Origin: an uncultured virus (IMG/VR IMGVR_UViG_3300023202_000179)
Taxonomy: Duplodnaviria; Heunggongvirae; Uroviricota; Caudoviricetes
Reading direction: 5' to 3' (one strand)
Virus record (IMG/VR): IMGVR_UViG_3300023202_000179
Length of the DNA: 64,000 bases
Shown: positions 3,688-40,772 of the stretch, piece by piece
Numbering within the stretch: position 1 is the stretch's first letter
Layout of the letters: each line of letters opens with the position of its first letter
The notes under the pieces: model-generated
Told to the model about the DNA's origin: nothing
Database searches by the model: none
The model's input: the letters and a program-made list of their open reading frames with translations, nothing else
Translations under genes and position numbers: made by a program

Positions 3688-4142
3688 CAGCGCCTGAACC
3701 AGGCTTTGAAAGTACGAGCAATTCTCGACGGAGGAACTCGCGAAAATCGAGAAGGTGCGGGGCGTGGGCGGTCACACGGAGTCTTCGGGTACTGGTCCAG
3801 TAACGCTAAACCCCCAAGACGGTGGAAAACCTCGTCTCTTTGCGGCTTTGAGTAACCGAAACTCTGCAACGTTTCGATGGCCGTCTCCGCTGCGGAACCC
3901 TCCACCGTTGGCGCAGATTCCATGAACCCGTTATCAATTGCAAGGCAGACAAACGTCGGGTTTTTGGTCGCCCAAGATATGAGTTCTCGGACGGCAGCCG
4001 CCCCTGCCGATTTCCAGTCGACAGTTCCGGCGTACTTCCCTAGTCCTTTAGCCATAACGAGGACTATAGCCTGTACTGCGTAGTCTTCGTTGTAGGCGCC
4101 CTTGATGTCCACCCCCTGCGGGGCAGTAGTTGCTAGATTCAT
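3687..4142 (-). CDS. Hypothetical phage protein
   Basis: AAGGAG RBS; stop overlaps next start. Confidence 0.6.
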   Translation of the reverse strand: MNLATTAPQGVDIKGAYNEDYAVQAIVLVMAKGLGKYAGTVDWKSAGAAAVRELISWATKNPTFVCLAIDNGFMESAPTVEGSAAETAIETLQSFGYSKPQRDEVFHRLGGLALLDQYPKTPCDRPRPAPSRFSRVPPSRIARTFKAWFRR

Positions 4143-4159
4143 TATCTGTTACTCCTTTT

Positions 4160-4753
4160 TCAATCTAATCCGTACTCTTCGAACTGGTGCATCAAATCTT
4201 CAAGCTCATCAGTTTCATCGATTCGCTCAAAATCTTCGTGAGCCTTCTTCCTTGCCTTCGCACGCAAGAAGCGCTGAAGCTCTTGCTCGTAGATCTCGTC
4301 GGGGGAGAGTTCAGCTTCCTCGTCCTTTCGATTACGTTTCCTACGTTGAGGCTCAGGGGATGCCACAGGAGCAGGGGCAGGAATCTGGGGAGGTGCCATC
4401 GGCCATGGGACCGGGAAGGCAGTGACGCCGGGCATCATCGGCATCTGCCCCATGCCTGGACCACCGAAGCCGGGCACCGTCCCCGGGTTGCGTTCCTCGT
4501 CCTCCTCGCCACCCTTCCCCCAGTTCGTCCACTGCTTGAACTTGTCAACCGCAAGAGTCGTCACGATCCCCCCCGCAGCAGCGATCGCCACGAACTTGAA
4601 CGCTCTCCACGCGAAGGAGGGCTTCTTCTCTTTTGGGGCAGCACTGGGCTCGCCCGTGGGCGGCGGAGGCGGAGGAGGAGGAGGGTTCCGCTCCTGTTTC
4701 TGCTCCTGCTGCCACCCGATGTTTGTTCCGGGTCCGTGATTGACTTTAGGCAT
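4160..4753 (-). CDS. Pro-rich membrane-anchored protein
   Basis: Poly-Pro, TM segment FVAIAAAGGIVTTLAV, acidic C-terminus. Confidence 0.6.
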   Translation of the reverse strand: MPKVNHGPGTNIGWQQEQKQERNPPPPPPPPPTGEPSAAPKEKKPSFAWRAFKFVAIAAAGGIVTTLAVDKFKQWTNWGKGGEEDEERNPGTVPGFGGPGMGQMPMMPGVTAFPVPWPMAPPQIPAPAPVASPEPQRRKRNRKDEEAELSPDEIYEQELQRFLRAKARKKAHEDFERIDETDELEDLMHQFEEYGLD

Positions 4754-5015
4754 GTGTCATACAGTCTAGCGCGTTTTTGCTCTACTCGCCGTCGATGAAA
4801 TCTTGAGCTCTCTTCTGGGCAGGTCCGGCGTAAGCACGGAAGATCGCATCGAGATCCCCTTCGCGCGCCGCTCGCGCTACAAGGTTTCTCCACCCAGTCA
4901 GCGTGAGGCCCCCTTGGACTGCCGTTTCAGCGAGACCGCCTAGGACATTCCCAGCGCTGCGACGTGCGAGCATGAGTGCGATCCAAGTAGCCATCAAGGA
5001 AACCTCATGCCTTGC

Positions 5016-5707: not shown

Positions 5708-6121
5708 TTACGCTCCCAGTCCTGGTGTCATGTCCCAACTCGAATCGATGAACTCTTGGAGAGACATGTCTTGAGGTTCCTGCCCTGTCATCTCGACCTT
5801 GACCCTCGCTGGTTTCGAGCAATCCGGGAAAGCCTCTTTGAAGTATTCCTCGGTGTGGGCCCGGAACTCTTCCTTATCTGCAGGAGGCTCCGGCACAAGC
5901 ATCTGATTCAGGTACCCGGCAGCATTAGCATCCTTCAGTGTGACGGTGCAGGATTCCGGTTCCTGCCCCTTCTTCCAGTGTTTGTACCCGTAGTACCCAG
6001 CTCCTCCGAGAGCCGCCAGACCGACTAACGCCAGCGCTGTGTCTGTCACTGGTCCGTTGCGCTTCTTGGGGTTCCGGCGTCGTCGAGTCGTGGTTTTCTT
6101 CTTGGTTCGTTTCTTAGTCAT
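5708..6121 (-). CDS. Basic N-terminus + TM membrane protein (paralog of 5016-5408)
   Basis: MTKKRTKKKTTTRRRRNPKKRNGP...GLAALGGAGYYGYK. Confidence 0.65.
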   Translation of the reverse strand: MTKKRTKKKTTTRRRRNPKKRNGPVTDTALALVGLAALGGAGYYGYKHWKKGQEPESCTVTLKDANAAGYLNQMLVPEPPADKEEFRAHTEEYFKEAFPDCSKPARVKVEMTGQEPQDMSLQEFIDSSWDMTPGLGA

Positions 6122-6122
6122 T

Positions 6123-6398
6123 TTAATTCTCCAAGATCGCGCGTCCGGGTTTGTTCTTCTTCTTCTCAGTTTCGACACCGAGTCTCTTTTGTTCCGTTCG
6201 GCGTGCGTTCGCCTGCAAGAACCTGTAGGCGTTCCAGACAGAGCAAGCGACACCGGATCCCGCGACGAACATCCCAATCAGGCTCTTGTGGCGCAAGCCG
6301 ACAAGGACCATGGCAGGCCCAAGCAGGAAGATGTCGATCAGGCGGATTGCCTGGGTCTCTCTTCTACAATCGACTTGCTCTTCGCATGCGATGATCAC
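6123..6398 (-). CDS. Two-TM small membrane protein (paralog of 6395-6634)
   Basis: QAIRLIDIFLLGPAMVLVG motif. Confidence 0.65.
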   Translation of the reverse strand: MIIACEEQVDCRRETQAIRLIDIFLLGPAMVLVGLRHKSLIGMFVAGSGVACSVWNAYRFLQANARRTEQKRLGVETEKKKNKPGRAILEN

Positions 6399-23820: not shown

Positions 23821-24105
23821 TCATTCGAGGATGAAGCGTTCCTGGACCTGTGGTGCTACTACGAGGCGAGTACAACGCACACCCCGAGCTCCTCGGCGGT
23901 GTGTTCGAGCGGTACGGGTGGGAAGCGGGCCTTGAAGAGCCCCCGCAAGTGCAAGAAGCTCGGGTTCGCCGAGGCTGAGGGCTTGATCCCGGTTCACCGC
24001 TTCGTGGAGCTCGACAAAGTTGTAACGAGAAGAGCAAGGATCCGATCACCATCCCTCTCGAAGGCGGGTCGAAGCGGTTGGCGAAGAAGCGGTCGGCTCG
24101 GAGGG

Positions 24106-24134
24106 TTGACATCGCTGAGAGGCGGGAGTAGTCT
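24106..24134 (+). promoter_or_regulatory. Sigma70-type promoter of the Cas12/TnpB-like gene
   Basis: TTGACA-17 nt-TAGTCT. Confidence 0.7.
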
Positions 24135-24145
24135 CGTGCCTGAGG

Positions 24146-25714
24146 ATGGAGATGGAGAAGACGATTATCAGAGCCTACAAGTTCCGGTTGTACCCGAACA
24201 AAGCCCAGATCCGGCGCTTCGAGCAGTTCAGCGATGCAGCCAAGTTTGCATGGAACTGGACACTCCGGTTTACCCAGAAGCAGCGAGAAGACGAGCTCAT
24301 CAGACTGAGGCTGCTTGAACCTCTGGATCCGGACAAGAAGCTGAGCAAGCCCCAGAGGAAGGCGCGCAAGTTCGCGATCCGAGACGCCGGGAGGAAAGCC
24401 AAGGAACTGGGTCTACCGCTCAAGCTCAGTTACAACAAGAGAGTCAAGAAACTAGTAGATCTCGGGTTTCTGCAGTCCACCGAAGAGCCCACAGGGAAGG
24501 CAGAGAAAAAAGCGAGGAGGATCGAGGTAGAGCAAGCCGAAAGGCGGGCAGCCGAGAGCGGGTACATTCTCCCTCCTCCGGAGCTCGACCCGCTGACCCT
24601 CTACCGCTGTTTCTGTCAGGAGAGGGATACCAATCCCGATTTCGCTTGGATCAAGAAAGAAGAGATCTACTCCCACGCATACAAGTACCCGATCGATCGC
24701 TTGGTCAAAGCGTACAAGGATTGGTTCAATTTCTTGGAAAAGAAGGGACCGAAAAAAGGACCCCCACAGTTCAAGGGGAGGACCGCTCCTTTGTCCTTCA
24801 CGCTACAGTTGCAGAATTGGATCTCCGTCGAAGGAGGGCTGAGAGTCCCGGGACTGAAGCGCAAAGCGGACGACAAGAGCATGTATCGGGTGAGGTGTCG
24901 TCCGAACCCGGAGGACATCATCAAATCCGGGAAGCCGTGTGAGATCACCGTCCGTCGCGTCGCCGACCGCTGGTACGCAACCGTCGTCTTCAAAGAGGTC
25001 CTGTACGAGCCGAAGCCAACACCCAGGAAGACAGCGGTTGGCGTCGATCTAGGGCTGAACAGTCTCGTCACCTTGTACGATGGCGAAGGGTACCGAGAGG
25101 TTGAACCCCCCAAGTGTCTTGCCCGTGCCCAGAAGATACTCGCAAAGCTTCAGCGGCAGCAAGCCAAGAAAGTCGTTGGATCGAAGCGCCACTTCAAACA
25201 GCGGATGCGAGTGGCGCGTCTCCATGCACAGGTAGCCAACACCCGCTACGATTTTTTGCAGAAACTCTCTTGCAAACTGGTGGACGAGTATGATACGGTT
25301 GTCGTCGAAGGTTTCGACGTGTCCAAGCTAGTTCACACAGGGGTGGAAGGGACCAACAAGCAAAAAGCCAGCAAGCGCCTGAAAATGCTGGATGCGTCTT
25401 GGGGGGAGCTCCGGCGGCAGCTGGATTACAAGTCCAACTGGAACGATCGAGTTTTCATTGTCCCACCCAAAAACGAACCGACTGACCAGACCTGTTCGGA
25501 GTGCGGAGCGCTCAACAAGCCCTCACTCAAGACCAGCGTCTACAAATGCAGCGAGTGTGGATTTTCCTCGACAAGACAGAGGAACACCGCTAAGCTTCTA
25601 CTGAGTTTCGCCACCGGCAACGGTGGAGGAAGTACCCCGGGTGGCGGGGGAACTTACGCACGTGGAGTGGAGGGTAAGTCTCCTTCGGAGGCGGATCTCC
25701 ACACTGAAGCGTGA
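24146..25714 (+). CDS. tnpB: CRISPR-associated TnpB/Cas12f-like protein (type V), RuvC-III Asp replaced
   Basis: N-terminal RAYKFRLYPN..Q...AWN (IS605 OrfB HTH), RuvC-I VGVDLG, RuvC-II VVVEG, CxxC..CxxC zinc ribbon, RuvC-III reads TRQRNTAKLL rather than xRDxNAAxNI; adjacent to the array. Confidence 0.9.
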   Translation: MEMEKTIIRAYKFRLYPNKAQIRRFEQFSDAAKFAWNWTLRFTQKQREDELIRLRLLEPLDPDKKLSKPQRKARKFAIRDAGRKAKELGLPLKLSYNKRVKKLVDLGFLQSTEEPTGKAEKKARRIEVEQAERRAAESGYILPPPELDPLTLYRCFCQERDTNPDFAWIKKEEIYSHAYKYPIDRLVKAYKDWFNFLEKKGPKKGPPQFKGRTAPLSFTLQLQNWISVEGGLRVPGLKRKADDKSMYRVRCRPNPEDIIKSGKPCEITVRRVADRWYATVVFKEVLYEPKPTPRKTAVGVDLGLNSLVTLYDGEGYREVEPPKCLARAQKILAKLQRQQAKKVVGSKRHFKQRMRVARLHAQVANTRYDFLQKLSCKLVDEYDTVVVEGFDVSKLVHTGVEGTNKQKASKRLKMLDASWGELRRQLDYKSNWNDRVFIVPPKNEPTDQTCSECGALNKPSLKTSVYKCSECGFSSTRQRNTAKLLLSFATGNGGGSTPGGGGTYARGVEGKSPSEADLHTEA

Positions 25715-25768
25715 ACGACTACACCTTCGGGAGGTGTCCCGGGGAGGCCCAACCTCCCCGGGTTTTTT
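25645..25768 (+). ncRNA. Putative tracrRNA / omegaRNA-derived scaffold overlapping the gene 3' end
   Basis: GAACTTACGCACGTGGAG...CTCCACACTGAAGCGTGAA resembles TnpB omegaRNA scaffolds; 25711-25735 pairs 21/25 with the CRISPR repeat; ends in a terminator; 5' boundary is approximate. Confidence 0.75.
25738..25768 (+). terminator. Rho-independent terminator ending the cas/tracr transcript
   Basis: CCCGGGGAGG-CCCAA-CCTCCCCGGG-TTTTTT. Confidence 0.9.
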
Positions 25769-25885
25769 AGCCCGCCGTCCTTGCGCTAGCATGCAAGGAC
25801 GGGATCTCCCAACGTCGGAGCCCCCGTGCTAGCGCAAGAGAAGAAGAACAAGGTTCAGCGCTTTGCTCCTAGAAGAGAAGGGGGA

Positions 25886-26681
25886 GTAACATCAACCTCC
25901 CGAACGAGTAGACGATCACACGAACTTCCGCCAGTCGGCCTCGCTCGCGAAGTCGGCTGTAACATCAACCTCCCGAACGAGTAGACGATCACACCGGGGT
26001 CCCGTACTTGCTGATGTCAACGATCTTCCGGTAACATCAACCTCCCGAACGAGTAGACGATCACACTCGGTGTCTTCGCCAGTCACGCTCATGCGCAAAA
26101 TCGTAACATCAACCTCCCGAACGAGTAGACGATCACACGCGTTGAGAAAGGCGTGGATCCACTCGTCTTTGATGTAACATCAACCTCCCGAACGAGTAGA
26201 CGATCACACCGACCGCCTCGAACTCCCCTGGACGTACATGCAAAAGTAACATCAACCTCCCGAACGAGTAGACGATCACACTGGAAAGCGAACGCCCAAC
26301 GAAGATGCCCTTGCATGTAACATCAACCTCCCGAACGAGTAGACGATCACACTCAGTGGAACGCTCGGCAGAAGTATCCGCTGGATTGGAGTAACATCAA
26401 CCTCCCGAACGAGTAGACGATCACACTGCGGCACCTCTACAACGAAGACGACTTGAGACGGGTAACATCAACCTCCCGAACGAGTAGACGATCACACGAA
26501 GGACATCGATTGAGAAAGGCCAAGGTAACATCAACCTCCCGAACGAGTAGACGATCACACGAAAGCTGGATTTGTTCTCCGATTTGCCGTGAGCGGTAAC
26601 ATCAACCTCCCGAACGAGTAGACGATCACATGCCGAGATGATCGCGTAACATCAACCTCCCGAACGAGTAGACGATCACAC
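25886..26681 (+). CRISPR. CRISPR array: 12 repeats of 36 bp, 11 spacers
   Basis: Repeat GTAACATCAACCTCCCGAACGAGTAGACGATCACAC at 25886, 25959, 26031, 26103, 26174, 26246, 26317, 26391, 26462, 26525, 26596, 26646; spacers 35-38 bp except 27 bp and ~14-15 bp near the right (trailer) end. Confidence 0.98.
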
Positions 26682-26694
26682 CCGAAGGCAAAAA

Positions 26695-26725
26695 CAAACC
26701 CCGCAGCGGATGACTGCGGGGTTTG
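26695..26725. terminator. Hairpin after the array
   Basis: CAAACCCCGCAG-7nt-CTGCGGGGTTTG preceded by an A-run (bidirectional). Confidence 0.7.
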
Positions 26726-26776
26726 CGAGGAGGGAGAGATGGTTTCTTTTCTCAGAGAGTCGACTTGGTAACCAAG

Positions 26777-29700
26777 ATGAGCGTAGACCAGGATCCAGAT
26801 GTTGTCAAGGGGGTACCGCCCAATCTTTCTCTGCAAAGGGGCGGGTGGCTCCCAGATGCAGCCCTTGAACGCTACGGAAGCCGATTCCTGGCCGTTGCCA
26901 AGGCTTTAGCCCACATCGGTAACATCGTCCCGGGTTTCGTCAACAAGGTCCCGCGGGTGAAGTTCCAGCGGTTCCATCACATTGGATCTCCGCGGATCTC
27001 CGACGAGCTCATGCACTCTTGGGGTCTTGGTTGCAGCGACTTCGACGGGCACAACGCCGTCGGTCGCCTCCCTCGCGAACCGGGGGAGGACGATCCGGTC
27101 GATGCAACACCGCTGTTTCTTGTAGCGTCGGGACGCATCGGCGTGATCGACGTCGACGACATGAAAATGCTGCCGACAGTGCTAGATGTGCTGCCCGATT
27201 CACCGCTTTGGGTCTCCACCGGCCGCGACGGAGGCGGTGTACACATCTACTTCAGAACCCCCGAAAAGGTACAGTCGCGGAACCACATCCTCCCAGGCGT
27301 TGATCTCAAAGCGCACGGCGCCTATGTCGTAGCCCCCGGCGCGCTACATGCCTCGGGTATCGAATACACCTGCACCCTCAGATACGAGGACCTCTCTGCC
27401 GGAGGTTGGTGGGGATCGCTGCCTATATTGACGCAGGAGATGCGCAGCGATCTCGTCGCTCTGGGTCAGGCTCTCAAAGGGCAGCGGTCACGCTCGCGCG
27501 GAGCGATGAAGCGAACGCGAACCGAAGCGGGGCCACACCCCCTCGAAGGTGCCGAGCTCAAGGCCGGGGAGATCCCCGCGGAAATGACGCAGCGCTACGG
27601 GTCTGAGGGCGAGCTTACCATCGAGCCGACGCCCCAGATCGAAACGTTCTGGCGCGTGGTCGACAAAAACGTTGGCGACGCCGTGTTCCGCGAGGGTGCG
27701 CGAGAAGCGGTGCGGCAGGTGTACGGGCTGGCCTGGGACTACCTCGCCAACCCGGAGACCGACTGTCGCGACAGTGACATCCCCGAGTGGATCCACCTCG
27801 CCGTACGCTTGTCACCTTGGATGAAAAAAGCGGTCCCGGCCTGGCACATCGAAGCGCTGCGACATCACTTCCCCCGTTTCTGGTCAGGTCTGGAGAGTGA
27901 GCCAGGCTACATGTGGGATCCGCTGCTCGACACAAGTGCGCCGACCGCGGGTCCATGCGATTTTTTGACCCATGCTCTGAGTTTAAAAAACGAAAACCGA
28001 AGCGATCTCGACTGGTTGAGGAAGAAACAACCCAAAAGTGCGGCAATCGCGGGTCCACCAGAAGCTAGAATTAACTACTCAGTAGCTGGTGACCCCTCGG
28101 AGTGTGGGATCGCGGACCGCGTTCGAAGTCGAGTTCGCAGTGCGGGTGAGGAATGTTCGATCCGCGGTGGACTTATCGTCGCTGGTATGGGCACCGGAAA
28201 AGGCGAGGTCGTTCAGGACTACATCGACAGGTGTGAGGCCAGCGGTCTCACGTACCGCGTCGTCGTTCCGTCCAGAGCGCTCTCCTACGAAGCGGCGGCG
28301 CGTTTTTCGCTGAGGCACTATGCTGACTCGGCAAATACGGCACAAGCGACGACCTTACAGTCAGCGCTCAAAGCGCAAGAGGAATTCGACCGGTGGATCG
28401 TCGACGAGATGCGCGATCTACTCAGTCAGATCTTCTCGCTCAGCGGAAGCAAAGGACGCGATCAGTTGGACGAGCTTTGTAAGTTCGCGGCCCGAGGGGC
28501 GTTGCTCGCGACCTGTGCTGACATGACCGAACGCGCGTCTAAGGCTTTTTGTGAAGTGGTCAAACATTATTGTCGCGACCGCCAGATTCCCGAGGTCGAC
28601 TTCCCGGTCCGCTTCGTTGAAGGGCATGTTTTACGTAAGACGGTCGAGCGTTTGACGCTCGATGAGATCGATGAAGCATTGTTGGAGTGTACGGGCAAAT
28701 CGCAGGTGTTGTGCGCTTCTGTCCGCGGTGCCGAGACCGTTGTGCAGCTACTACTCGCCGCTGGGAAGAACGTCTACCCGAACATCGTCGGGGGTGACCG
28801 CAGCCGCAAACCATGCCGAAACCTCGATGAGGTTTTCACGATGTATGACGTCGTCGTCGGTACAAGCGCCATGGCAGTTGGGGTCAACATCAACACACCG
28901 CTGGACCTCCAAGCGGTTTACTACGATCACAACGGCACGACCCCGCGAACGATTCGTCAGGGTATCGGCCGCGGAAGGAAATGTGAAAACGTCAAGATCT
29001 ACGTGCCGGGGTGGGGGGCAGGTCCGAATCGATCGCGCGCGCGACCGACACGTATCCGGACAGTCAAGCGTATGCTTACTGAGCATCACAAGGTGGGGCG
29101 AGCGCTCGCTGGGCATACTTACGAAAACGGGTTGTACCACAACGATGCGGCGCTCTCGTTGTGGGCAATCCTCGAAGCCGAAGATAACCAGGGCAAGAAC
29201 GACCCCGTCGGCGAGTTGCAGCGCATGTTTGACGCGGTGAGATGGGAGCACGAGCTCGGCTACCCAGGTGAGAACGAGCCGTCGGCCGCGCGCAAGATCG
29301 CCAAAGGTGAAGCGGTTGACGAGGACGTACAGAACATCCGCACCGCCCGCAAGATGAACGAGCCCGAGTATGTGGCGGTTCAGAACGCTGTCGAACCGAC
29401 GGATACGCAGATATACGCGAAGCGGCGCTACGAGATCGAGACGTTCCATGGTGAGGAGATCGGGGCGTCGAATCAGGCCGAGGAGGCCGGGCGCCGTCAA
29501 GAGCTGACGACCGCTGACCGCCGCGGACGGTTGCGCGAGCGCATCACACGTTCCCAGATCGCTCAAGCAGTGCAGCGCCACGGTACCGACGTCTGTCTCC
29601 TCGACATCGCGGTCCGCGGAAAGGGCACTTACGACAAGGAGACCGATCGTTGGGTTCAGAGAGCGACGACTCAGCGCACGACATGGCGCGCGACCCAGGT

Positions 29701-39608: not shown

Positions 39609-39781
39609 CCCCTGAAGAAATGATTGACGGATTTCTCCTGACGGTGTCGGTAATTATCGTCATTGCAGGGGCAGTCGTAGGATTCTAATCCAAGGGGCGG
39701 AGCGTGCATGGTGTGCGGGGAGATCCCGTGACGACCTTTTGTTGGGGTGGCATGAAACACACGCTTCGCCCCTATTTTTCG

Positions 39782-39813
39782 CATCAACCTCCCGAACGAG
39801 TAGACGATCACAC
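39782..39813 (+). CRISPR. Orphan CRISPR repeat (last 32 of 36 nt, exact match)
   Basis: CATCAACCTCCCGAACGAGTAGACGATCACAC, ending 17 nt upstream of ATG 39831. Confidence 0.95.
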
Positions 39814-39830: not shown

Positions 39831-40772
39831 ATGACATCTAATCCAAGAGGTTTCTACGGGCTGTCCTGGCTGCTCTTCATCTTCGCTTCGATCTGCGGAG
39901 CAGCTCTGCTGGTAGGGTGCAACATCGAAGCAGAAGGGGCTGTCAGCTTCGAGACGGACACCGGAGGCAGAGAACCGCTGCCACCGAGACCCCCCGATCT
40001 CGGGCTCGAAGAGTACGAGCCCCCGTTCAAACTGGACCTCCCCGAGGCCCAGGGATGCGATCAACTTGATGTGCTGTTTGTGGTGGACAACTCCGGAAGC
40101 ATGCTTGACAAACAGCAGCAGTTGATTGGGGCGGTCCCTGGCTTCATCGAGCAACTGCAACGCTTGGGGCTCGGCTTCGACATGCACATTGGCGTTGTCA
40201 CGACAGACAGCTACGACGCCAACGCTCCCGGCTGCCGAACCCTCGGGGCGCTCGTGACCCAGAACCTCGACGAGGAGTGCTCGTTCGGTTCGGGTGAGCG
40301 GTTCATGTCGCCTGAGGATCTACAGGCCGGAGCCTTCGAGTGCGCTTTCAATGTCGGCACAGCCGGTCACGCGACAGAGCAGCCCATCCTCGCTCTGCGA
40401 CGAGCCCTGATGCCGTCCAGCAACGGAGACGGGTCCCCCTTCGGGGTCCGGTACGACGAATGTAACGAAGGCTTCCGACGTGAAGGGGCAGCCTTCGTTG
40501 CTGTCATTCTCACCGATGAAGACGCGCAATCCCCGGACAGTCTTGATCGATGGCTCGAAGAACTGGACTACCTTCTTGGAGACGTGACCCAGCTCTACGT
40601 CGGCTTCGTCGCCATGGGCGAGTGCGGGCACAACCCGTCAACACGTCTGTTGGAATTCTTCGATGCGGTTCCTGCGCATGTTTCTTCCGTTTGCGCTGAC
40701 TACTCCGCGGAGTTTGAGGTTGCGACGCGCACCCTCGCAGATTCTTGTGCGGTAGCCGTGCCGCAACTTTGA
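39831..40772 (+). CDS. vWA-domain lipoprotein of myxobacterial type
   Basis: LLVGC lipobox, DVLFVVDNSGSM (MIDAS), HIGVVTTD, FRREGA..ILTDED. Confidence 0.8.
   Translation: MTSNPRGFYGLSWLLFIFASICGAALLVGCNIEAEGAVSFETDTGGREPLPPRPPDLGLEEYEPPFKLDLPEAQGCDQLDVLFVVDNSGSMLDKQQQLIGAVPGFIEQLQRLGLGFDMHIGVVTTDSYDANAPGCRTLGALVTQNLDEECSFGSGERFMSPEDLQAGAFECAFNVGTAGHATEQPILALRRALMPSSNGDGSPFGVRYDECNEGFRREGAAFVAVILTDEDAQSPDSLDRWLEELDYLLGDVTQLYVGFVAMGECGHNPSTRLLEFFDAVPAHVSSVCADYSAEFEVATRTLADSCAVAVPQL

Follow-up and report, generated by a model that had tools for sequence, protein, structure and literature searches.

A 64,000-nucleotide (nt) stretch of DNA from an uncultured virus of the Caudoviricetes (IMG/VR record IMGVR_UViG_3300023202_000179), referred to here over its whole length as the window, very probably carries a minimal type V CRISPR system that is derived from TnpB and lies on a phage-like element. 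On this reading, nt 25711-25735, which run across the stop codon of the effector gene, are the 3′ part of a tracrRNA (trans-activating CRISPR RNA) of ~165 nt (~25604-25768). Comparison with related loci supports an origin of this RNA by division of a TnpB omegaRNA into a tracrRNA and a CRISPR repeat. The parts of the proposed system are:

24146-25714, + strand: effector gene for a TnpB-like RNA-guided protein of 522 amino acids (aa) with a REC insertion, identified by Pfam, NCBIfam, PADLOC, Protein Data Bank (PDB) and Foldseek matches
~25604-25768, + strand: proposed tracrRNA, ~165 nt (omegaRNA-derived scaffold, anti-repeat and terminator), delimited by conservation, its 5′ end by conservation only
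25626-25720, + strand: scaffold core common with TnpB omegaRNAs, matched by covariance model (CM) R1 at 76.7 bits
25711-25735, + strand: anti-repeat, complementary to repeat nt 10-34, with 25714/25716-25735 as its secure part
25738-25768, + strand: intrinsic terminator with a stem of 10 base pairs (bp) at 25738-25762 (9/10 pairs G-C), loop CCCAA and T6
25886-26681, + strand: CRISPR array, with 12 repeats (36 nt each) separated by 11 spacers, beginning 172 nt past the effector stop codon

The anti-repeat, GTGAACGACTACACCTTCGGGAGGT, is complementary to the repeat at 21 of 25 positions, whether read directly or counted by script, and the mismatches are A.A at 25715, 25718 and 25723 and C.C at 25725, in number and kind as an earlier sequence-only reading of the window had reported. 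A perfect 10-bp seed occupies 25726-25735. The repeat finder pairs this arm with all 12 repeats at 82-84%, no other site on the + strand of the window has at least 20/25 ungapped complementarity to the repeat, and none of 100 shuffled repeats has any site of at least 21/25 on either strand. The earlier reading also placed the anti-repeat over the stop codon and ahead of a perfect terminator; the stop codon TGA (25712-25714) indeed lies within it, and the 10-bp stem and T6 follow. A stem and T-run stand after the anti-repeat in four related loci as well (L008, L067, L068 and L069), and the terminator is proposed to be the 3′ end of both the tracrRNA and the effector mRNA. Cofolding with the repeat, suggested in the earlier reading as a check, favours the intermolecular duplex, with pair probabilities of 0.69-1.0 between 25711-25735 and repeat nt 10-34 and an energy of -100.4 kcal/mol compared to -69.5 and -6.6 kcal/mol for the parts (sum -76.1). 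The free tracrRNA forms a self-hairpin, ACACCTT/GAGGTGT (25720-25737), that is displaced on cofolding. The ACACCT/AGGTGT self-fold noted previously therefore exists in the window, but no equivalent of it occurs in L008 or L067, so the conformational switch proposed for it lacks comparative support.

Four tracr loci, those nearest to the window, align at the DNA level from ~25604 through the terminator, and RNAalifold finds 30 pairs on this alignment, of which 14 have compensatory changes. The tracr region had first been drawn from 25645; the region is real, but the conserved RNA begins upstream of that point, at ~25604. A tracr profile matches the window in a single copy (nhmmer E 3e-40), and the fold z-score of the region is -3.5. 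The core consists of a hairpin at 25635-25649, a long-range helix pairing 25659-25663 with 25709-25713, and a stem at 25667-25702 with a UUC-loop inner hairpin. The omegaRNA-like motif ACGCACGTGGAG...CTCCACACTGAAGCGTGAA of the sequence-only reading is present, but its GTGGAG/CTCCAC pairing stands 5 nt from the register that comparative data support; the covarying register of the main stem pairs 25667-25673 with 25696-25702.

The same structure occurs at tnpB genes that have no CRISPR array. An nhmmer profile of the four tracr regions matches the 3′ ends of array-less canonical tnpB genes (L111 at 6e-6, L106 at 3e-4, L017/L089 at 6e-3). A 17-pair structure reaches 92.8% pairing on a MAFFT alignment of five CRISPR-linked and four canonical sequences, compared to 67% for shuffled and 27-46% for slid controls, and 14/17 pairs are compensatory, which 0/500 shuffles reach. 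CM R1, a home-built covariance model made from this alignment and applied at E <= 0.01, has 62 matches in 57/147 sources, every one of them on the gene strand; their position in the loci checked is at the 3′ end of the TnpB match or slightly beyond it. The 32 distinct matching sequences are 95.2% paired, compared to 60.5% shuffled and 37-46% slid, with compensatory changes in 16/17 pairs; their alignment is fitted to R1, and the MAFFT alignment is independent of it. These comparisons show, as judged from conserved sequence and pairing, that the scaffold core belongs to the structured-RNA family of canonical tnpB omegaRNAs. A covariance-model search had been recommended as a check of the omegaRNA origin, and R1 supplies this link between the window scaffold and canonical tnpB 3′ ends; Rfam returned nothing relevant for 24000-27000 at E <= 10, and no Rfam family covers the scaffold.

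Two side observations concern this RNA family. When six canonical loci were compared with Rfam, the sole relevant match was RAGATH-18 in L106 (1309-1374; 30 bits, below the threshold of 44.9); it falls on the main stem of the L106 omegaRNA and hints at a link with the IS607-type right-end RNA (reRNA) motif. A contig from a Clostridia metagenome-assembled genome (L035) has three scaffold-model matches on the same strand at ~1.7 kb spacing (2534-2632, 4172-4270 and 6060-6158), which may represent either TnpB elements in tandem or an array of omegaRNAs.

The place at which the ancestral RNA would have divided can be read from canonical relatives. Genome G001 has three paralogous copies, which resemble one another through ...GGGG(T/A)GATGTCAG and are unrelated past it, so the right end of the element and the junction between scaffold and guide lie there. 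In these copies the core ends in ...GGGAAC; a single hairpin (CCCCTGGC, loop, GCCGTGGGG) comes next, and then the tail TGATGTCAG. Other canonical loci are organised likewise, their tails reading for example AGTGTCAA, TAGTTCAC or GTAGCAG. In the CRISPR-linked clade the core ends in ...G(A/C)GAAC and is followed by the anti-repeat and then the terminator, and the repeats end in GATGTCAC, GATCACAC or GATGACAC. Mapped onto the ancestral hairpin, the anti-repeat would correspond to its 5′ strand, repeat nt 10-28 to its 3′ strand and nt 29-36 to the right-end tail, which would put the break point of the RNA in the loop of the terminal hairpin. The resemblance of the repeat end to TCAC-type IS605 right ends, suggested in the sequence-only reading, stands only insofar as related right ends read GATGTCAG or TAGTTCAC. 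At this locus the scaffold is not continuous with a guide, because the terminator follows the anti-repeat and the guides lie in a separate array; this makes the RNA a tracrRNA, unlike an omegaRNA.

Anti-repeat and repeat also change together. In a 5 × 5 RNAduplex matrix of tracr segments and repeats, each row and each column has its energy minimum at the cognate pair (window -30.1, L068 -24.9, L069 -23.0, L008 -19.3 and L067 -16.0), and the diagonal ranks first among 120 permutations. The anti-repeat thus tracks the repeat in 5/5 loci, and together with the common core and the split hairpin this supports the earlier proposal that the omegaRNA has separated into tracrRNA and repeat. RNAduplex runs of long flanks against the repeats were uninformative because GC-rich flanks also duplex strongly with shuffled repeats, and they were replaced by the short-segment matrix.

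About 30 codons at the 3′ end of the effector gene lie within the scaffold. In the AlphaFold model the corresponding 30 residues (nt 25622-25711) score below 35 in pLDDT (predicted local distance difference test), and the C-terminal tail is predicted to be disordered. In locus L069 the tracr scaffold, anti-repeat and terminator (L069:727-892) lie upstream of the effector gene, free of any TnpB body; the L069 effector has no tail, and a remnant of the tail 'coding' sequence travels with the scaffold (tblastn E 1e-4). Since the L069 scaffold sits outside the gene and the tail of the window effector is modelled with such low confidence, the tail region appears to be under constraint at the RNA level and not at the protein level.

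These observations bear on the possibility that the complementarity is a fossil, that the region is nothing but coding tail and terminator, and that the effector is guided by CRISPR RNA (crRNA) alone or is unguided. Two observations are in its favour: the duplexes of L008 and L067 are weak on their own, and the tail is in frame, counted for all five genes (though the L069 effector is without it). The anti-repeat nevertheless follows the repeat in all five loci, compensatory changes keep the scaffold helices paired, the L069 element persists outside the gene with its own terminator, and the tail is predicted to be disordered. According to their titles, solved structures of the TnpB fold all contain a large scaffold RNA. 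We regard the fossil explanation as highly improbable.

Several points weigh against a split omegaRNA that functions as a tracrRNA. The first three bases of the anti-repeat (25711-25713) also belong to the covarying long-range helix; the start of the anti-repeat overlaps a scaffold helix in this way, so the real duplex is shorter than 25 nt. The cognate duplexes of L008 and L067 are by themselves no better than those with shuffled repeats (147/500 and 151/500), so the support from these two loci comes only from the matrix, and the co-variation set consists of only five tracr loci. The tree of the effector clade discussed below comes from a quick IQ-TREE search. Expression and ends of the tracrRNA are inferred from sequence; one DNA metagenome run, and no RNA run, contains 24146-26700. 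A promoter for the array was looked for without success, there being no sigma-70-like site in 25300-26900. Spacers of the window array have no significant match in the phage collection (best E 0.8, to mycobacteriophage tape-measure genes; the plasmid collection was not searched), and spacers of the L067 and L008 arrays likewise have no significant match in the phage collection; these searches gave no protospacer and no PAM.

We infer a mechanism in which the effector transcript would supply the tracrRNA from its 3′ end, in the way that TnpB produces its omegaRNA. The tracrRNA would anneal to the pre-crRNA and restore an omegaRNA-like fold that the effector binds. The guide would be the 5′ part of the spacer beside ...GATCACAC, and the targets may be DNA of competing elements.

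The effector itself is close to TnpB. It contains the Pfam domains HTH_OrfB_IS605, OrfB_IS605 and Cas12f1-like_TNB and scores 196 bits with the NCBIfam model guided_TnpB (RNA-guided endonuclease, TnpB family), for which the cut-off is 100. Its PDB sequence matches are ISDra2 TnpB (1e-35), RdCas12n (1.4e-27), LaTranC (2.4e-7) and Cas12m (1e-5). The AlphaFold model (pLDDT 76) has ISDra2 TnpB (8h1j) as its top Foldseek match, with a target TM-score (TMt) of 0.76, and has an additional helical insertion close to its N-terminus; the REC insertion comprises ~100 residues. ISDra2-type TnpB (8h1j, 8exa) offers the nearest fold and a top sequence match, and it too has an RNA scaffold in the 3′ end of its gene; the right-end tail of canonical TnpB elements corresponds to the 3′ end of the repeat, the common core being that of the canonical TnpB loci compared. 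The locus differs from ISDra2-type TnpB in having no tnpA among its open reading frames (ORFs), a guide supplied in trans from an array, the ~100-residue REC insertion and a Gln in RuvC-III, and it differs from the ISDra2-type omegaRNA in that the terminal hairpin is split, with a terminator at the break.

Close relatives of the effector are few: about 17 occur among 5.8 billion clustered proteins, at 34-48% identity, and the other matches are ordinary TnpBs of 370-400 aa. In a tree of 63 rows, the 23 rows with the motif RQxNTA (17 database proteins and six locus translations, some of them near-duplicates) form one split with a Shimodaira-Hasegawa-like approximate likelihood-ratio test (SH-aLRT) support of 100. 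A CRISPR array is adjacent in 7/7 clade loci that have sufficient flanking DNA (the window, L008, L067, L068, L069, L071 and L072); L070, which ends too soon, was left out. The clade contig names were not found in a supplement of PMC10691335.

Loci of the clade differ in how their parts are arranged. In L068 the array lies upstream of the effector and on the opposite strand (L068:1770-2584), the tracrRNA is still at the 3′ end of the gene, and the T-run of the terminator is translated as codons, with the stop codon after it. Members of the clade's short branch (406-448 aa; L071 and L072) have the scaffold wholly downstream of the stop codon (L072:5108-5247). The anti-repeat of L072 pairs with the 5′ part of the repeat (nt 1-22) at -54.7 kcal/mol, and L071 has two scaffold-model matches (4067-4167 and 4866-4966), the second within the array region.

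The system could instead belong to the characterised Cas12n family (type V-U4, now V-N) as one of its divergent members, in which case the mechanism would be the same under a different label. The top PADLOC match of the effector is Cas12u4, that is Cas12n (1.4e-64, residues 3-489), and a profile of the clade aligns with RdCas12n (9j09) over its full length, including the N-terminal insertion, at 1.6e-64. Cas12n resembles the locus in its similar size, its N-terminal REC insertion and a tracrRNA over an unstructured C-terminal tail; 10.64898/2026.03.27.714800 describes a Cas12n tracrRNA within a low-confidence gene tail. RdCas12n, however, keeps the catalytic RuvC-III Asp (MDRDLNAA), whereas the clade has Gln. 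The 23-row clade includes neither the close RdCas12n homologue P0060 (1e-136 to 9j09) nor L116, its CRISPR-linked partner, though both are on long branches and the node next to the clade is unresolved, so they may be its sisters, and CM R1 has no match in the Cas12n-like locus L116 at E <= 0.01. The nearest fold is that of ISDra2 TnpB, with 9j09 in 37th place in the Foldseek ranking, although only 257 of its residues are modelled. We regard membership of Cas12n as unlikely.

The clade also has an altered catalytic site. The catalytic residues of ISDra2 TnpB are D191, E278 and D361, as given in section 2.4 of PMC13639567. In the alignment the RuvC-I Asp and RuvC-II Glu are invariant across the clade (D299 and E386 in the numbering of protein P0001), and Q476 aligns with ISDra2 D361, so that Gln replaces the RuvC-III Asp. 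The clade motif TTRQxNTA stands in place of HDRDxNAA (the window effector reads TRQRNTA), and with RQxNTA in 23/23 rows the clade does not have the RuvC D-E-D triad. By a regular-expression count over the 120 hits listed, Gln occurs in 14 of the top 17, the remaining three showing Gln in the alignment, and from P0018 onward (n=103) there are 101 with Asp, one with Ser and one without a match. D445, in the TDQxC motif, varies: it is present in 12/15 rows as read from the alignment. Because all clade members carry Gln at RuvC-III, the complex may bind DNA instead of cutting it, or may cut via a rearranged site, and cleavage by the effector is uncertain. A recent screen for such systems dropped proteins without D-E-D, according to 10.64898/2026.03.27.714800.

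The element that carries the locus looks like a phage. Among the 81 ORFs called in the window, those recognised via PHROGs or Pfam encode a tail-spike-like beta-helix protein, an M15 endolysin, helicases, exonucleases, a primase-polymerase, a family A DNA polymerase, a tyrosine integrase, MazG and Cpn10. Neither a capsid nor a terminase protein was recognised among these ORFs, and none encodes Cas1, Cas2 or Cas4. None encodes TnpA (Y1) or a serine transposase either, no separate search for transposon ends having been made.

In addition to the array, the window contains a single detached repeat:

39778-39813, + strand: solitary repeat, matching the array repeat at 33/36 positions and identical over 39781-39813

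It lies 13 kb from the array and stops 17 nt short of ORF 39831-40772, whose ribosome-binding and start region would be its guide. This guide matches nothing in the window but its own locus, and no relatives of the ORF, sought as an 'empty site' of the solitary repeat, were found in IMG/VR. The 5′ end of the solitary repeat, TTCGCA, is nearer to the CTCGCA at the start of relatives' repeats than to the GTAACA of the window array, and a 14-mer flanks the segment (TCTAATCCAAGGGG at about 39683 and TCTAATCCAAGAGG at 39837). The array spacers are 27-38 nt long except for the last, of 14 nt; this short spacer and a variant repeat mark the distal end of the array. Exact matches of two spacers and of the repeat were absent from IMG/VR, and no self-target was found in the window or, for L008, in its genome.

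An altered catalytic site and a solitary repeat would both suit a domesticated nuclease-dead regulator of the TldR or Cas12m type, with the array and solitary guides repressing phage, host or rival genes. Gln at RuvC-III in all clade rows, against Asp in 101/103 other hits, is in keeping with this, as are the lack of cas1, cas2 and cas4 among the window ORFs and the position of the solitary repeat immediately upstream of an ORF start. Type V effectors are documented to have been inactivated repeatedly, with interference then based on binding (PMC12669027, PMC10691335 section 8 and PMC11656645); V-M and V-C are cases in PMC12669027 and PMC11656645. Nuclease-inactive type V systems (Cas12m/V-M, V-C and the predicted V-O and V-P) and TldR also share with the locus a compact TnpB/Cas12 scaffold borne on mobile genetic elements, an altered RuvC site and the absence of adaptation genes. 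In the clade, by contrast, two of the three catalytic residues (the RuvC-I Asp and RuvC-II Glu) are invariant and a single one differs, and the sequence match to Cas12m is weak (1e-5). Altered RuvC-III motifs are documented in section 8 of PMC10691335, where conserved single replacements are read as rearranged, possibly active sites. The 11 diverse spacers, unmatched in the window and the L008 genome, resemble an immune array, and the only match of the solitary guide is its own locus. A regulator of this kind is possible but on balance doubtful.

A more far-reaching reading joins these strands. The clade would be a rare, monophyletic TnpB-derived CRISPR lineage on mobile elements in which the Gln became fixed while the split omegaRNA was kept, giving an RNA-guided DNA binder, not a cutter, born at the transition from transposon to CRISPR. 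The solitary repeat would be a detached 'right end', with tracrRNA supplied in trans rebuilding an omegaRNA guided by its own flank, and the homing logic of TnpB would be reused by the phage to mark or silence rival genomes without the insertion. We consider this combination unlikely.

The preferred reading of a minimal TnpB-derived type V system has its closest published parallel in TranC, the transposon-CRISPR intermediate, and the 'functional RNA splitting' model (Jin et al. 2025, as cited in 10.64898/2026.03.27.714800, PMC13565253 and PMC13639567). Reports on some TranC clades include a phage-borne example (CauTranC9) and 36-nt repeats. Like the locus, TranC combines a little-changed TnpB-like effector with an array that has no adaptation genes, and its omegaRNA/reRNA is split between a tracrRNA and a crRNA repeat. 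TranC reportedly cleaves DNA under the guidance of CRISPR RNAs or, alternatively, of a single reRNA of the ancestral kind. Three features by which TranC is recognised recur here: an effector close to TnpB, association with an array in 7/7 loci, and a split reRNA, the last by sequence comparison only. LaTranC (9jfo/9jfq) is distant from the window effector (2.4e-7 by single sequence, 1.4e-22 by clade profile), and the clade differs from TranC in its RuvC-III Gln.

The concept of a split omegaRNA is thus already published, for TranC and Cas12n, and the value of the locus is that of a new lineage with testable details and not of a new concept. New here are the Gln at RuvC-III across a CRISPR-linked clade, the solitary repeat at 39778-39813 and a very clear alignment of ancestor and descendant. 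The locus is an unusually legible natural case of a CRISPR guide system arising from a transposon guide RNA, in which the ancestral single RNA, the break point and both products can be aligned base by base with living relatives. This alignment permits direct design of a single-guide RNA for the clade, and the compact effector of ~520 aa, with its altered catalytic motif, may be a natural DNA binder.

The neighbourhoods of relatives have no accessory genes in common; RadC, a dCTP deaminase, a macro domain protein and a ResIII helicase occur once each. The DNA between the terminator and the array forms a further feature:

25769-25885, + strand: leader, from the terminator to the first repeat, assigned by sequence position

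Within the leader, 25774-25838 contains a hairpin (CCGTCCTTGC...GCAAGGACGG) and an inverted pair of 12-mers (CTTGCGCTAGCA / TGCTAGCGCAAG). At the other end of the array, a 14-pair hairpin right after the last repeat (26694-26726) has a T-run on the - strand and is probably a terminator common to the array and a convergent or neighbouring transcription unit.

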